Of a stretch of 16,481 bases of DNA, positions 8,908-16,481 are shown one piece after another. Both the position numbers and the translations under genes were made by a program. A model generated the notes under the pieces. It saw only the letters and a list, made by a program, of their open reading frames with translations, was not told where the DNA came from and searched no databases. The stretch's first letter is position 1. Every line of letters starts with the position of its first letter. Source of the stretch: a virus (Duplodnaviria > Heunggongvirae > Uroviricota > Caudoviricetes); the IMG/VR virus record IMGVR_UViG_2563366825_000024. One strand, written 5' to 3'.

Positions 8908-8963
8908 ATCGGCTGAACCTCAGCAACCAGTTGACGGGGACTTTCGTCCCCGTCGCGGTTTTC

Positions 8964-9104
8964 CTACTGCTTACACTGTAAGAACGCCGCAAACTCCGCT
9001 CCCCACAAATTCAGCCGGAACTCACACAACGAGCCGTGTAACATCCAGATGGTGAAGATTACCGTCATACAAATTGTGACGGTGATGAGCGATTTTTGCG
9101 ACAT
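8964..9104 (-). CDS. Hok/Gef-family-like type I toxin, 46 aa small membrane protein (MSQKSLITVTICMTVIFTIWMLHGSLCEFRLNLWGAEFAAFLQCKQ)
   Basis: Not in the ORF track (below its size cutoff). ATG at 9102-9104 with AGGAGG (plus 9113-9118) 8 nt upstream; stop TAG at 8964-8966. N-terminal hydrophobic helix, then SLCE-x-R ... E-x-AAF-L-x-CK, which matches my recollection of the Hok/HokA/PndA pattern. Confidence 0.6.
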   Translation of the reverse strand: MSQKSLITVTICMTVIFTIWMLHGSLCEFRLNLWGAEFAAFLQCKQ

Positions 9105-9288
9105 AGCGCTTGCCTCCTGAGTGGAGAGGCGCTAACCTTCTACTTGCTTAAGGTATGATGGTTAGGGCCTCGGGTTAAACAAAATGTTTGACTCGGGGCC
9201 TTTCCACATCAGGCCTTCAGGTTCTCCCTCCAGCCATCAGCCGAAAGGCACCCGCGCATAATCTACGATTTTTGCCCTGCACGGGCAA

Positions 9289-9314
9289 CAAAAAACCCGC
9301 CATCACAGCGGGTT
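9289..9314 (-). terminator. Putative intrinsic terminator downstream of the Ail/Lom-like gene
   Basis: On the minus strand: AACCCGC-TGTGATG-GCGGGTT followed by TTTTTTG, about 23 nt after the TGA at 9337-9339. Confidence 0.5.
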
Positions 9315-9336
9315 ATGACATGTTGTCGGGTATTAC

Positions 9337-10074
9337 TCAGAATTTCAGGCCAATGCCTGCAAATAAACCATCAGTTTTCCAGTCGCCAGAGCCTGAGCTT
9401 TCATAAGTGACGTCCATAGTAACACTTTCATTGAAGTTAAATTGCGCGCCGACAGACCATGCAATAGACGTTTTTTTGGTGCTGTTACTTTCAGAAAAAC
9501 TACCGGCACCATGATTAAGATTGTCGTTAATTTTCAAGTCAGTGGTGACTTTTGCAACCCCCATGCCAGCCATTGCATACACACTGAGGTATTCGTTAAA
9601 CCGCCACGAAGGACCGGATAGTAGACTCCAGTAATTAGCCCTGATATCAGTTCTCGCTGAAGCTGCCGGGTTTTTTACCTCTCGTGATGGATCGGAAGGC
9701 TTAACATCAATAAATGCCTGCGCATTAGTCATGGAGCGCGCCCATGTAAAAGAGGCTATAACACCCAGTTCATCAGTTATCTCGTAACGATACCTGATGC
9801 TCATCCCCAGGGGGCTTTTGGCTGTGCCGTCATGCCCCCGGGCAATAGCATTTTCGTATTCAGCTGATGAATTAAAATGGTTTACGTTTACAACATTCCT
9901 GAACGTATCCCGGTTATAAACACCCGCGTCTCTAACAAAATCCTTCAGCCCGGGGAAGCGTATGTGTGCAAACCCGAGAGATACCGTACTATCGCCTGAT
10001 GCTGCATTTACCTGTGCAGTTAAGCAACTCATCACCAGAACTGCACACGCAAAAAATTTCATGATACTTTTCAT
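9337..10074 (-). CDS. Outer-membrane beta-barrel protein, Ail/Lom/PagC/OmpX-like (245 aa, longer than typical members)
   Basis: N-terminal signal peptide ending AQVNA-AS. Internal IRYRYE resembles the family signature; C-terminus GIGLKF ends in Phe as is typical for OMPs. True ATG at 10072-10074, second in-frame ATG 4 codons later. AT-rich. Confidence 0.65.
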   Translation of the reverse strand: MKSIMKFFACAVLVMSCLTAQVNAASGDSTVSLGFAHIRFPGLKDFVRDAGVYNRDTFRNVVNVNHFNSSAEYENAIARGHDGTAKSPLGMSIRYRYEITDELGVIASFTWARSMTNAQAFIDVKPSDPSREVKNPAASARTDIRANYWSLLSGPSWRFNEYLSVYAMAGMGVAKVTTDLKINDNLNHGAGSFSESNSTKKTSIAWSVGAQFNFNESVTMDVTYESSGSGDWKTDGLFAGIGLKF

Positions 10075-10153
10075 TTTAAGTATTTCTCTGAATTAAAGGA
10101 TGCGATGTCTGAAAGGAACGCTTTCGTTTTACACTATTAAAGTTTTTCTTACG

Positions 10154-10780
10154 CTAATCATATATTGAGGAATTAATAACCAGAACTTTATCTATATACG
10201 GCTTCCGAATATCCCATGTTGCACGACCGGAATAATGCTCACAGGAATATATTTTATTTCCTGTAGCCCCCGTTGATGTGGTGTAAATCGGTCGGTCATA
10301 AGGTGTACGCTGCCAGTTATAATACCCAACCAGTGCAGGCATAATTGCGCATGGATATCCAAGATCCTTCTCAAACTTGATATCAACTGGTATTAACTTC
10401 GCGTCAAGCAGCATCATTTCGCCATGGTAAATCATCTCACCCGACGGGTTATACATGGCAATACCATACTCAGAAGGTTGAGTAACCATATTCGCAAAAG
10501 CATAAACAGTCGTAACACCAGGATTCGTTCCCCTGACAATTTGATGAAGCCTTAAGGCATGATATCCATCAATCTGTTCATGTGTGTACATGACATCGGC
10601 CTTTTTCTCTGTTCTGATAAAGAAAAAACAACTTTTTCCTGACGGGATTGATGTTTTAAAAAAAGCCTTCTCAGTCGCCGGAATAGTTCCCTTATTGATC
10701 AGACACTGAGGCGTAAACCCCGGGCTTATCCACAAGCTGCCATCTGGTTTCGTAATGCTTAAACCATACATACAACTCAC
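10154..10780 (-). CDS. Hypothetical protein (208 aa from GTG 10780; 205 aa from first ATG at 10771)
   Basis: Track start is GTG, overlapping the TGA of the upstream 68-aa ORF. First ATG (10769-10771) has GGGGGTGA 5-6 nt upstream. Cys/Tyr-containing, no recognisable signal peptide or family. AT-rich. Confidence 0.5.
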   Translation of the reverse strand: MSCMYGLSITKPDGSLWISPGFTPQCLINKGTIPATEKAFFKTSIPSGKSCFFFIRTEKKADVMYTHEQIDGYHALRLHQIVRGTNPGVTTVYAFANMVTQPSEYGIAMYNPSGEMIYHGEMMLLDAKLIPVDIKFEKDLGYPCAIMPALVGYYNWQRTPYDRPIYTTSTGATGNKIYSCEHYSGRATWDIRKPYIDKVLVINSSIYD

Positions 10781-10959
10781 CCCCAGAATGTATAAATATA
10801 TGACCCCATCCCCTGCTCAAGATTCGACCACGTCACCGTATTGCCATTAATGGTTATCTTCGGTACTTTCCGGTCCTTAAATACATTATTCCACGGAAAT
10901 AATGAACAGACTGCCTGCAATGTTTTCCCTTCTGGTTTATTCGTATACGTTTTTGATCC

Positions 10960-10983
<24 letters not shown>
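10777..10983 (-). CDS. 68-aa ORF, possibly the 3' remnant of a gene interrupted by the adjacent IS3-family element
   Basis: ATG at 10981-10983 lies at the IS boundary. The same frame stays open upstream into the IS-derived sequence, so the native N-terminus may have been displaced. Stop overlaps the start of the 208-aa ORF. Confidence 0.4.
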
Positions 10984-13119
<2,136 letters not shown>

Positions 13120-14055
13120 ACAGCGTATTTTGCACAGGAGTCGCTGAAAAATACGCGTTAATCGAACAATGGCGACAACAATTTCCCATTGAAGCGATGT
13201 GTCAGGTATTTGGTGTATCCAGGAGCGGTTATTACAACTGGGTACAGCATGAACCCTCAGACAGAAAACAAAGTGATGAGCGGCTAAAACTGGAGATTAA
13301 GGTGGCACATATCCGCACTCGCGAAACATATGGAACCCGGCGGCTCCAGACGGAGCTGGCAGAGAATGGCATCATCGTTGGTCGTGACCAACTGGCACGT
13401 CTTCGTAAGGAGCTAAGGCTACGCTGTAAGCAGAAACGCAAGTTCAGAGCGACTACGAACTCGAACCACAATCTGCCAGTTGCGCCAAATCTGCTGAACC
13501 AGACGTTCGCTCCTACAGCACCAAATCAGGTCTGGGTGGCGGACCTGACGTATGTTGCCACACAGGAGGGATGGTTGTACCTCGCTGGCATCAAAGATGT
13601 TTATACGTGCGAAATTGTCGGCTACGCCATGGGAGAGCGCATGACAAAAGAGCTGACAGGTAAAGCCCTGTTTATGGCGCTCAGGAGCCAGCGCCCACCT
13701 GCCGGGCTAATCCACCACTCTGATCGAGGTTCACAGTACTGCGCATACGATTACCGGGTCATACAGGAGCAGTTTGGTCTGAAAACATCAATGTCGCGTA
13801 AAGGTAACTGTTACGACAACGCTCCGATGGAAAGCTTCTGGGGAACGCTGAAAAATGAGAGCCTGAGCCACTATCGTTTTAATAACCGGGATGAAGCCAT
13901 CTCAGTAATACGGGAATACATTGAGATTTTCTACAATCGTCAGCGTCGTCACTCTCGTCTGGGGAATATCTCCCCGGCAGCCTTCAGGGAAAAATATCAT
14001 CAGATGGCTGCTTAAAAAAAGAACAAATGGTAGTGTCCGCTATTGCCAGTACACC
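13120..14055 (+). mobile_element. Second, different IS3-family element, 5'-truncated (orfA replaced by IS30); right end approximate
   Basis: OrfB frame is open from the IS30 junction (NSVFCTGVAEKYALIEQWRQQFPIEAMCQVFGVSRSGYYNW...) to TAA at 14013-14015. DDE motifs HHSDRGSQYCA and GNCYDNAPMESFW. Sequence is distinct from the left-hand IS3-family copy. Confidence 0.7.
13197..14015 (+). pseudogene. IS3-family transposase OrfB segment (272 aa from internal ATG), no orfA present
   Basis: Track ORF. The upstream in-frame region lacks the OrfA frame and frameshift window, so a normal OrfAB transposase cannot be made. Confidence 0.7.
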
Positions 14056-15730
14056 TCAGAACCCCGTTCTCCAGCGGAGTGATTTTCACTCCTTTATCTG
14101 AAATATCAACATCCGGCAGCTCACCGGCAAGAGCCATTGCGTTAACTTCTTCCAGACGAGATGCAAGAAGCGTCATACGGGCCTGAAGATATGCATGGCA
14201 ATCAGTCTGCACAGCCAGTTGTAACTGGTCATTTTGTCGGGATTTATCAAATTCAGTGACCGGGATAAGATAATCATCAAAATTTCTGTAACGACGCGAC
14301 CCTTTTACCCAAATATCTCCGGAACGTAACGCCCCCTTGAGTTCATTCAGTACACAAAACTCATAGTATTTTCGATTGATGCCTGAAGGCGTTAATACCA
14401 GTTTTCGCCAGCTTTCAGGAATAAATGCTGTTGGCGCTGTAGGCGGAACGTTACGAAGCTGCTTACGGTATATTTCCCTTATAGTATCCAGTGCATCGCT
14501 GAGCGGCTGCGCCGCAGGTGTCGCTACAAACTGCAATGCTGACAACATTCGTGGAGCGTATTTTCGAAGTGTGCTGTATTTTTCGGTGATCAGGTGAAGA
14601 GGATCGAAATTACCTTTACGGGACAGCAACTGTGTTTCTTCCAGGCTGTTGACGAACTCCTGCCTGGGAATAACATCTTCTATCGCGGCCCAGGGATCTT
14701 CACCTGACTTTCTGGCATGCAGTAGCGCCTGACCGACAGTAACATATTGTCTTAACTTGCTCTGGATAAGTTTGCCTGTTAACTGAAGCCTCTCGGCTTG
14801 TGTGCGTTTTGCCTGGCTGAACAGACCGCCCATAATGCGTTCGTGTAGCTCGATAACTTCATCAGTCAATGTTGCTCTGGCTTCCTGAATGACACAAACC
14901 AGCGTAGCGTAACGTCTGATATCGGTGAATTTTGCCAGATCTCTGCTGCTCATTTTTCGGCCCTCACGCGCCAGTTTGAGTAATTTGTTCTGGTGAACGG
15001 AAAGCTCAATACCATCAGGTAATTCCAGCGCGGTGATAGAATTAAGTCGATCGATATGTTGCAGCACGTTTTTACCGTTAATTTTACCGGGAGGCTGAAG
15101 TAGCCACGCAAGTCGGGAAGGTTGTTCCCCTTCTGATATGAGCAGGCTGTCGAGTGCAGATCTATGCTGCTTTCCCAGTTGTGTCGTAAGTGCCGAAAAA
15201 ACAGATCTGTCAGCAAGTGTGACGGCTTCGGCAAGCGTCCGTTCGATCACATCAACCGACGGGAAAATAACATTATTGTTATGTAGCCAACTGAGCATTT
15301 CCTCCGCCAGAGTAAATCCTTTATCTGTTCGCATGGCATAGGAATGCAGATGCCGAATGCAGTCTTTTTGCAGAGTTCGGCTGAACGGAGATAATTTCAG
15401 GTAGCGATAAAGTTCAGCCAGATGCTCCCAGCGGGTTTGCTCTCTGGCTGCATATTCATGCCATAAATCGGGCTGAAGCTTCAGTCTTGAAGCAATTCTG
15501 GATACAACGCCACAGTGGGGAACATTATTTTTGTCCGGAACAAATCCAGGCCCACGCAGGTAACAGAGTAATACCGCAAAGCCCAGGCGATTAGCTGGAC
15601 GCCGGTGCTTATTAATGAGAGCAATATCTTTATCACAAAGAAAACACATTCTGGTCAGAATAATTTCATCATCTGGTATAACCAGCAGGCGAGCTTGCTC
15701 TTCACTACTCAGTATTTGTCGCCGTGGCAT
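14012..15730 (-). pseudogene. tnpA: Tn3-family transposase TnpA, N-terminal about 556 aa only; C-terminal catalytic region removed at the IS3-family junction
   Basis: Starts MPRRQILSSEEQARLLVIPDDE...ANRLGFAVLLCYLR, resembling Tn21/Tn3-family TnpA N-termini from memory. TnpA-like sequence stops near ...KITPLENG; the last 16 codons and the stop are encoded by the IS end sequence. Confidence 0.75.
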
Positions 15731-15890
15731 GAATGCTTCCCTCGTGTAAAGTTTTCATATGTTATGGATTTGTTGTGACCGAAAACGACCGGTTTCGGAC
15801 ATTGTTAAACAGATATATCCGAAAGTCAGCGAAATTACTTTCGGACATGCATTATAATATGTACACCTATTTCGTACAGAAGATCTCACT
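15731..15890. promoter_or_regulatory. res-like resolution site and divergent promoter region between tnpA and tnpR
   Basis: TTTCGGACAT occurs twice (15793-15802 and 15839-15848). Perfect 9-bp inverted repeat TCCGAAAGT/ACTTTCGGA (15818-15826 and 15837-15845) with 10-bp spacer; imperfect pair GACCGAAAAC/GTTTCGGAC around 15777-15800. Consensus-like TATAAT at 15853-15858, 33 nt upstream of the tnpR ATG. Confidence 0.6.
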
Positions 15891-16481
15891 ATGTCTCGAA
15901 TTTTTGCCTATTGTCGGGTTTCCACTCTGGAACAGACGACCGAAAATCAACGTCGGGAAATCGAAAGCGCGGGTTTTAACGTCAGACCCCAACGAATAAT
16001 CGAAGAACAAATTAGTGGCTCAGTAGCAACCAGTGAACGTCCTAGTTTTAACCGGTTGCTTGATCGTCTGGAAAGTGGCGATGTATTGATAGTCACAAAA
16101 CTGGATCGCCTCGGTCGTAATGCAATGGATATCAGGAAAACAGTGGAGCAACTGACCGAATCTGGCATCAGGGTGCATTGCCTGGCATTAGGTGGTGTTG
16201 ATCTGACCAGTCCGGCAGGAAAAATGACAATGCAAGTGATTTCAGCGGTCGCTGAATTTGAACGAGATCTTTTACTTGAACGAACTTATTCAGGGATAGC
16301 AAGAGCACGGGATGCAGGAAAACGTTTTGGTCGCCCACCGGTATTAAATGAAGAACAAAAACAGAAGGTACTCGAACGCATTAAGTCTGGGGCAAGTATA
16401 AGTGCTATTGCCAGGGAATTCCGAACCACACGGCAAACAATTCTGAGAGTTAGAGCGAAACAGCAAACTGTTACTGTATAG
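15891..16481 (+). CDS. tnpR: Serine recombinase, resolvase/invertase family (196 aa), probable transposon resolvase
   Basis: ATG at 15891, stop at 16479-16481. N-terminal catalytic motif YCRVSTLEQ, then LDRLGR and AEFER; C-terminal helix-turn-helix-like tail. Divergent from a Tn3-family tnpA across a res-like site. Confidence 0.8.

Follow-up and report, generated by a model that had tools for sequence, protein, structure and literature searches.

Gene content at the insertion sequence boundary

We analysed a window of 16,481 nucleotides, the whole stretch of the tailed-phage record IMGVR_UViG_2563366825_000024, in which two adjoining open reading frames (ORFs) of 68 and 208 amino acids (aa) lie on the minus strand against the end of an insertion sequence (IS). 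The first-pass annotation, a reading of the DNA letters alone, had described them as two AT-rich ORFs of no recognised family, the smaller one starting at the boundary of an IS3-family element. The composition and the position were correctly described: the G+C content is 0.435 for the 68-aa ORF and 0.416 for the 208-aa ORF, compared with 0.533 in the phage-derived part of the window (1-9000). The listed ORFs and our interpretation of the locus are as follows.

10154-10780, minus strand: larger ORF of 208 aa with a GTG start, as given in the ORF list
10777-10983, minus strand: small ORF of 68 aa with an ATG start, as given in the ORF list
10154-10771, minus strand: intact gene for a 205-aa all-beta 'hand-like' protein (phrog_425), orthologue of Sp5 ORF73 (ECs1235) and phi24B gp54
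10777-10784, minus strand: Shine-Dalgarno-like run GGGGGTGA, read from the sequence, within the 3' end of the small ORF
10777-10982, minus strand: 3' remnant of the gene for a small beta-sandwich partner (phrog_557), orthologue of Sp5 ORF72 (ECs1234) and phi24B gp55
10983, minus strand: junction base, the terminal A of the IS end; phage homology reaches 10982 and homology to the IS block starts at 10983
10983-11737, minus strand: intact terminus of an IS3-family element (plus strand TGTAGTGGTCAAGTAATATTGGCCACGG...) with an orfB remnant (NF033516, Pfam rve, HTH_21)

Judged by sequence comparison, the pair is homologous to ORF72 and ORF73 of Sp5, and to gp55 and gp54 of phi24B, in the late region of short-tailed Shiga toxin (Stx)-type phages. 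It is a known gene pair that has been discussed recently, and the copy found here is degenerate. We hold it to be probable that the locus derives from a short-tailed Stx-type prophage (Sepvirinae, 933W/Sp5/phi24B-like), of whose tail module it is the orphaned distal end, the pair encoding a needle-tip adaptor and an adhesin. The 205-aa product is accordingly a putative receptor-binding protein (RBP) of the central needle tip.

Identity of the gene pair

Sp5 carries these genes within the series ORF70-ORF74, where ORF72 (ECs1234) encodes 92 aa and ORF73 (ECs1235) 205 aa (PMC5155283). The primers published for their deletion encode MEY...FWG* for ORF72 and MYG...YD* for ORF73 (PMC5155283), and these termini equal those of the pair. 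In phi24B the counterparts are gp55 (vb_24B_41, YP_009168169.1) and gp54 (vb_24B_42, YP_009168170.1). The 205-aa protein shares 195 of its 205 residues with gp54 (95.1%) and is 100% identical to that of PhiR5_2. Besides the termini, the Sp5 and phi24B pairs have a short intergenic spacer and a downstream lom gene in common with the window, and their needle gene stands upstream as in intact relatives. Unlike them, the window has a small gene without codons 1-25 and without its start, and lacks the needle gene together with the upstream tail and head genes.

At the same place, intact relatives have two distinct genes, of 92-93 aa and then 205 aa, which bears out the suggestion that the ORFs are a coupled gene pair. 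With a coverage of at least 80%, it was found in 412 of the 5426 complete E. coli genomes; about 280 phage records contain it as well. The intact order is a 541-567-aa gene and a 422-aa 'phage tail tip fiber protein' (needle) gene, then the 92-93-aa gene, the 205-aa gene, lom and hok. The window keeps the downstream half of this order (205-aa gene, lom, hok and the genes for 133 and 218 aa), whereas an IS mosaic stands in place of the needle gene and of the small gene's 5' end.

That neither protein has a family is true for Pfam and NCBIfam, where our scans of both proteins found none. It does not hold for PHROGs, in which phrog_557 ('outer membrane protein') matches the full-length small protein at 7e-34 and phrog_425 ('membrane associated protein') the larger protein at 1.5e-79.

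Truncation of the small gene

A megablast search with positions 10100-11000 against the complete E. coli genomes gave 415 records in 414 of the 5426 genomes, and every listed match stops at query base 883, which is window position 10982. At 10983 begins a block made of a partial IS3-family element, an IS30 and a partial IS600 that is known from other E. coli chromosomes and plasmids. The truncation of the upstream ORF by the IS, which had been suspected from the sequence, is evident from this change of homology between 10982 and 10983. In an alignment to two intact prophages (L001 and L002), the native ...ATA TTT TTC CTG GAC AGG... has become ...CAC TAC ATG GAC AGG.... The ATG of the 68-aa ORF is chimeric: the IS contributes the A as its terminal base (10983), and the native Leu26 codon CTG supplies the TG (10982-10981). 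Read on the plus strand from 10983, the IS end is TGTAGTGGTCAAG... / TGTAGTGG..., a terminus of the TG...CA type. The 68-aa frame does stay open into IS-derived sequence, as had been pointed out, for 23 codons up to a TGA at 11055; there is no start codon within this stretch, and nothing Shine-Dalgarno-like was found upstream of the chimeric ATG.

What is left of the small gene are codons 26-93 (codon 26 by its last two bases) and the stop. The search for uninterrupted homologues proposed in the first-pass annotation allowed us to reconstruct the pre-insertion gene, which encodes 92-93 aa from a native TTG start. The expectation that a much larger gene had been cut was wrong, since only 25 of 93 codons are missing; the real loss is the upstream neighbourhood, with the needle, nozzle, fibre and head genes that precede the small gene all absent from the window. 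The TTG and the GGAGG Shine-Dalgarno sequence are gone with them, and a complete small gene (92-93 codons, TTG behind GGAGG) is not found in the window. The 25 missing codons are the most conserved ones of the N-terminal part and encode the majority of the small protein's invariant positions (Y4, G5, Y9, V16-G18, L20-P22, F24 and F25), and the truncated protein is therefore likely to be non-functional. The profile phrog_557 still matches the 68-aa fragment (1.9e-22, profile positions 25-92 of 100), which is 91-97% identical to full-length 92-93-aa proteins. What the first-pass annotation had named as refuting its reading, a complete stand-alone small gene and a larger protein of known family, applies only in part: the small ORF corresponds to a stand-alone gene in relatives but to a truncated one here. 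The 68-aa ORF is best seen as an accident of the junction.

A single contig (KE136671.1, GCA_000407805.1) has the exact 68-aa product on record, and a sequence spanning the junction occurs in none of the complete E. coli genomes and PLSDB plasmids. The junction is a rearrangement that is rare and specific to the strain or, possibly, the product of scaffolding at an IS. In the course of events that we envisage, the IS3-family element would have become joined to codon 26 of the small gene, everything upstream being replaced by a plasmid-like IS mosaic, and the intact 205-aa gene would have lost the needle to which its product attaches. Because the small gene is beheaded and the needle gene gone, we infer that the pair is almost certainly non-functional in this window. 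The locus is best regarded as a fragment of a decaying prophage joined to plasmid-type IS debris, that is, an ordinary remnant.

Start of the second gene

The stop/start overlap reported between the two ORFs is literally there, as a GTGA in which the GTG (10780-10778) overlaps the TGA stop of the small ORF (10779-10777). It is probably not the real arrangement, because the second gene most likely begins at the ATG at 10771, behind the run GGGGGTGA, and encodes 205 aa. This run (10784-10777) includes the TGA of the small ORF and ends 5 nucleotides (nt) before the ATG. The 205-aa form is the one annotated by RefSeq in relatives, and nearly all aligned full-length homologues open with M-(Y/F/H)-G at the position of ATG 10771. 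In the Sp5 counterpart, the published deletion primers reveal that the upstream stop is TAA and that the nearby GTG is out of frame (PMC5155283). The conserved feature is a spacer, of 2-11 nt in the relatives examined, rather than a stop/start overlap. Coupled expression would be compatible with such a ribosome-binding site, which falls within the last part of the upstream gene.

Occurrence beside gpJ-like genes

The two-gene cassette travels as a unit and sits by gpJ-like genes at the receptor-binding locus in unrelated phages. For small siphoviruses, Maffei et al. 2021 (PMC8594841) have defined a 'bona fide RBP locus' downstream of gpJ. The pair of Warwickvirus tonn (gp66/gp67) runs convergently to the gpJ-like gene, and its larger protein is 44.7% identical; the BASEL phage FritzSarasin (Bas04) is one of dozens of related Drexlerviridae that share this arrangement. 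In the Nonagvirus members BRET, JenP1 and JenP2, the pair has the gpJ-like gene on one side and the lateral fibre genes on the other. In the Dhillonvirus JLBYU60, the gpJ-like gp24 is followed by gp25 (100 aa), gp26 (224 aa) and, on the opposite strand, a cor-like exclusion gene. The 205-aa family aligns with JLBYU60 gp26 over its full length (hhalign, 96.8% probability, E 2.3e-10).

The pairs of JLBYU60 and of the Warwickvirus members tonn and FritzSarasin represent the same gpJ-adjacent cassette, with about 92-100 aa followed by 204-224 aa. They differ from the Stx-type pair in belonging to siphovirus virions and in a divergent C-terminal third of the larger protein; the pair and gpJ are convergent instead of co-directional in tonn and BRET, and JLBYU60 depends on FhuA. 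A variable locus beside a gpJ-like central fibre gene is therefore what the intact relatives and the distant homologues occupy, whereas in the window the gpJ-like gene is missing.

Within the 205-aa family, the C-terminal third of the Stx/BRET type differs from that of the Warwickvirus type. In BRET, JenP1, JenP2 and a group of phages of about 108 kb (Cyrano, CMS-2020a and PhiR41_1), the C-terminal region is Stx-like (about 60% identity) and not Warwickvirus-like; the loci compared for these alleles were L007, 4717-5615 (BRET), and L006, 4717-5615 (Cyrano). If the C-terminal region is receptor-specific, BRET/Cyrano-type phages might share the receptor of the Stx phages.

An exhaustive profile search for the hand-like family yielded 115 representative clusters. 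About 10 of them consist of proteins of 309-325 aa, with the hand-like domain beginning at around residue 100 and the first 100 residues showing homology to the small protein (hhalign 96.2%, E 2.3e-9). The gene for one such fusion (P0090) stands immediately behind a gpJ-like gene of 2872 aa, and a Peptidase_S74 fibre gene comes next. For P0091 and P0125, two more of the fusions, there are tail-fibre-type genes downstream, while their upstream genes are cut or unannotated. On the question raised earlier of whether the two frames are fused in relatives, the answer is thus divided: they are separate in this lineage and fused in these distant clusters. Because distant relatives fuse both modules in one chain, the two ORFs, although separate genes in the lineage of the window, appear from their sequences to be parts of one functional unit.

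A few database entries homologous to window positions 10692-10983 are products of frameshifts at this locus. One (P0025) runs from the small gene into an alternative frame, that of a 42-aa ORF at window positions 10692-10820. Another (P0013) reads across the gene boundary via ...GVSCMYGL... and forms a single-member cluster with several frameshifts. Both look like sequencing errors or pseudogene variants rather than natural fusions.

Predicted structure and protein features

The structure prediction recommended for the larger protein gave a confident all-beta model (AlphaFold2 with a 28-sequence alignment, pLDDT 91.3, pTM 0.86) that is uncertain only in the first ~20 residues. The modelled fold matches the solved RBP of the Dhillonvirus Oekolampad (Bas18), determined on LptDE (PDB 9RPT; PMC12685063), so that a predicted structural kinship to an experimentally established RBP was found. 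The Oekolampad RBP differs in being larger (~254-309 aa), in targeting LptD rather than BamA and in its partner, which is a periplasmic exclusion lipoprotein (Rtp45 type) and not a small beta-sandwich protein. Searches of PDB sequences gave no match for either protein, nor for the 28-sequence profile of the 205-aa family. A functional analogy exists to T5 pb5 with Llp and to the C-terminal domain of lambda gpJ, which place a terminal-receptor adhesin at the central fibre's distal end, pb5 as a separate polypeptide and gpJ as a C-terminal domain.

Neither protein has a signal peptide, a lipobox or a hydrophobic or transmembrane segment: the maximum KD19 is 0.83, compared with 1.87 for Lom, whose N-terminal signal peptide is hydrophobic. 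We also considered superinfection exclusion of the cor/Llp/Rtp45 kind and rejected it, since those proteins are exported lipoproteins and the pair has no lipobox or signal peptide.

A motif YG(F/I/L)x(I/M)(Y)N..G opens the small protein (EYGFAIYNRNN) as well as the 205-aa protein (MYGLSITKPDG) and appears again at residue 101 of the latter (EYGIAMYNPSG); this comparison covered window positions 10154-10771 and L001 positions 6678-6959 at the protein level. The idea that one module is repeated in the small protein and in each half of the 205-aa protein was unsupported (hhalign probabilities of 0.1-39%).

Role of the pair in the intact phage

In the intact phage, the late transcript encodes the trimeric gpJ-like central needle (Sp5 ORF71, phi24B gp56), then ORF72/gp55 and then ORF73/gp54. 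Most likely, the small and the hand-like protein would join into a complex on the needle's C-terminal beta-prism, and the hand-like protein would act as an adhesin contacting the outer-membrane receptor, which is BamA for Stx-type phages. The separately encoded RBPs on the gpJ tip of small siphoviruses are the parallel that we propose for gp55/gp54.

Several published observations fit this arrangement. Using AlphaFold-Multimer, Matusiak et al. (PMC12309495) described the phi24B pair as a small Ig-like and a 'hand-like' protein located where the central spike ends, and put the latter forward as the undetected BamA binder. A preprint combining cryo-electron microscopy and proteomics (bioRxiv 10.64898/2026.04.10.717836) reports that phi24B gp56 forms a flexible central needle, that gp54 is found in CsCl-purified virions and that extra unassigned density at the needle tip has approximately the size of a gp54/gp55 heterodimer. 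Purified BamA neutralises podophages (PMC12502783), and the phages neutralised in that study carry a protein that is 95.6% identical. The match of the modelled fold and the natural fusions beside gpJ add independent support to a tail-tip adhesin.

Other data weigh against it. In phi24B virions gp54 is low in abundance and gp55 was not detected (bioRxiv 10.64898/2026.04.10.717836). Mondal et al. (PMC5155283) made in-frame deletions of Sp5 ORF72 and of ORF73; neither is among the nine mutants without plaque formation and lysogenisation on K-12, nor among the impaired ones (PMC5155283). Since a sole BamA binder should be essential, these deletions speak against the pair being strictly required on K-12. 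Phage Cyrano (108 kb) has the pair among accessory genes, with no tail gene beside it. Finally, the fold match to the Oekolampad RBP comes at 10% identity and with no sequence-profile signal against PDB. The phi24B authors state that the identity of the RBP is still to be confirmed (bioRxiv 10.64898/2026.04.10.717836). The location of both proteins at the needle tip and the binding of gp54 to BamA are what we infer from the evidence given above. The role as BamA binder is in tension with the Sp5 genetics, and an accessory adhesin or an assembly role is possible.

The assembly role would make the pair non-structural chaperones for the folding or trimerisation of the needle or the lateral fibre, with no host contact. 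The genes follow immediately after the needle gene, the usual site of fibre chaperones; like some chaperones they are non-essential in Sp5, their products are scarce (gp54) or undetected (gp55) in virions, and Matusiak et al. (PMC12309495) named a structural or chaperone-like role as a possibility. We nevertheless consider this role rather unlikely. The pair resembles neither Caudo_TAP nor other chaperone families, and the only strong structural relative is an RBP caught on its receptor. The gp54 peptides in CsCl-purified virions and the unassigned needle-tip density speak against it as well. Moreover, some lineages fuse both modules and encode them RBP-like downstream of gpJ, and one such locus (L011) has a separate Caudo_TAP gene as well.

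As an accessory adhesin, the pair would sit on the needle tip and bind a receptor other than BamA, or improve adsorption on particular hosts, while BamA would be recognised elsewhere, in the needle prism or by the lateral fibre (gp61/ORF67). This would reconcile the RBP-like fold and the presence in virions with viable Sp5 deletion mutants on K-12, and the C-terminal third differs between the Stx/BRET and Warwickvirus types as a specificity region would. It seems improbable to us, because the phi24B authors regard the tip of the lateral fibre and the smooth needle prism as unlikely BamA binders (bioRxiv 10.64898/2026.04.10.717836) and no alternative receptor is known.

A slightly smaller chance still is given to moron or virulence cargo, as the first-pass annotation had proposed, in which the proteins would be accessory envelope or virulence factors expressed with Lom to the benefit of the lysogen. 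The pair is directly upstream of lom and hok, its G+C content is below that of the neighbouring genes (0.42-0.44 compared with 0.53), ORF72 and ORF73 are non-essential for Sp5 propagation, and in Cyrano the pair is located among accessory genes. PHROGs places phrog_425 in the category 'moron, auxiliary metabolic gene and host takeover', and the labels of both families refer to membranes. However, the low G+C content equally fits a horizontally exchanged receptor-binding cassette, and of the features of a moron (own promoter and terminator, a product on the envelope of the lysogen) only the lower G+C content was found. No promoter-like or terminator-like site scored above chance in a scan of 9900-11300. 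The proteins carry no export signals, and published estimates of their membrane affinity are low too (Matusiak et al., PMC12309495). In addition, strictly virulent Drexlerviridae and Queuovirinae keep the pair at the gpJ-adjacent locus, the predicted fold is that of a phage RBP and gp54 is present in phi24B virions.

The last proposal, that the 68-aa and 208-aa frames are halves of one ancestral coding sequence split by a frameshift, can appeal to the abutting frames with their GTGA overlap, to the single-chain fusions in distant relatives and to P0013 reading through the boundary, but is virtually excluded for this lineage by the occurrence of two genes with the same boundary sequence in the 412 complete E. 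coli genomes and ~280 phage records, functional phages (phi24B, 933W-type, Sp5) included, by a boundary region in the window that is identical to intact relatives, and by the several frameshifts in the single member of the P0013 cluster.

Flanking phage genes and the IS mosaic

The remaining features of the window are the following.

1 to ~5700, minus strand: giant ORF running off the left window end, with LPD5, LPD1, MuF_C and LPD38 domains (also L008, from 15296 onward)
8964-9104, minus strand: Hok/Gef-family toxin gene (46 aa), with lom and the 133-aa ORF on its two sides, an arrangement shared with Sp5-type prophages
9337-10074, minus strand: Ail/Lom-family outer-membrane protein gene, next downstream of the pair (Pfam Ail_Lom 2.9e-29; synteny)
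10991-11737, minus strand: IS3-family orfB remnant of 248 aa (NF033516 transpos_IS3 8.8e-80, profile positions 137-368 of 369)
~11900-13120: IS30 copy with a complete transposase gene (11961-13112, plus strand)
13197-14015, plus strand: partial IS600 (family scans)
14012-15730, minus strand: partial Tn3-family transposase gene, tnpA (family scans)
from 15891 onward: resolvase gene (family scans)

Lom is the downstream neighbour in Sp5 (ORF74) and phi24B (lom) as well; we take it as context outside the tail-tip pair. Past lom, the same strand carries the hok/gef gene and then ORFs of 133, 218, 150, 83 and 420 aa. The giant ORF at the left end is a homologue of Sp5 ORF80 and of phi24B gp47, for which a role as capsid-packaged ejection protein has been proposed (bioRxiv 10.64898/2026.04.10.717836). 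An Rfam scan of the whole window at gathering thresholds gave no match, neither to a Sok-like nor to any other RNA family.

The assignment to the IS3 family is based on a DDE/rve-type orfB (Pfam rve 6.1e-27, with HTH_21 matching as well) and on the TG...CA terminus. Compared with a full element (orfA, frameshift site, both inverted repeats, 3-4 bp target duplication), this one is incomplete: its 5' part is gone, the IS30 copy lies beyond, and only the profile positions given above are covered. The same block in another locus (L003) is labelled 'IS3 family transposase, incomplete, missing N-terminus'. The composite IS3-family/IS30/IS600 block (window 10983-14058; L003 3001-6076) recurs at ~99.7% identity with different flanks in E. 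coli chromosomes and plasmids, for example beside yeeU in strain MINF_7C. In it, the two partial elements stand head to head around IS30, and the block seems to move or recombine as one unit.

Positions 11899-16481 match a 99.8-kb E. coli plasmid (NZ_CP060062.1) at 100%. In KE136671.1 (122.6 kb), the IS mosaic runs on into resolvase, Phd/Fic, GFO_IDH_MocA and EamA genes, as in NZ_CP060062.1. This contig joins the late region of an Stx-type phage to plasmid DNA, and is either a real phage-plasmid recombinant or the result of a scaffolding join at an IS; the regions considered for this were window positions 10984-16481 and L008 positions 1-10000.

Implications for receptor recognition

For the window itself the import is small: two "unknown" ORFs have been resolved into a known and widespread gene pair of Stx phages. 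The wider interest lies in the intact pair, as gp54/ORF73 is the current candidate for the protein by which the medically important short-tailed Stx phages recognise BamA, but the Sp5 deletion data do not agree with that role.

The structural match leads to one further suggestion, which is independent of the truncated copy described here. We tentatively propose, well aware that it may prove wrong, that the phrog_425 proteins (those of the gp54 type and JLBYU60 gp26) belong with the LptD-binding Oekolampad RBP in a single structural superfamily, whose members would be monomeric adhesins of the tail tip. In a 2026 preprint, the RBP families associated with FhuA and those associated with LptD are taken to be unrelated. 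The Oekolampad RBP traps an open state of LptD. If the superfamily is real, the Stx-phage member would, by analogy with Oekolampad, plug the BamA barrel. It could then serve to capture conformations of BamA and might offer a lead for blocking the spread of Stx phages.

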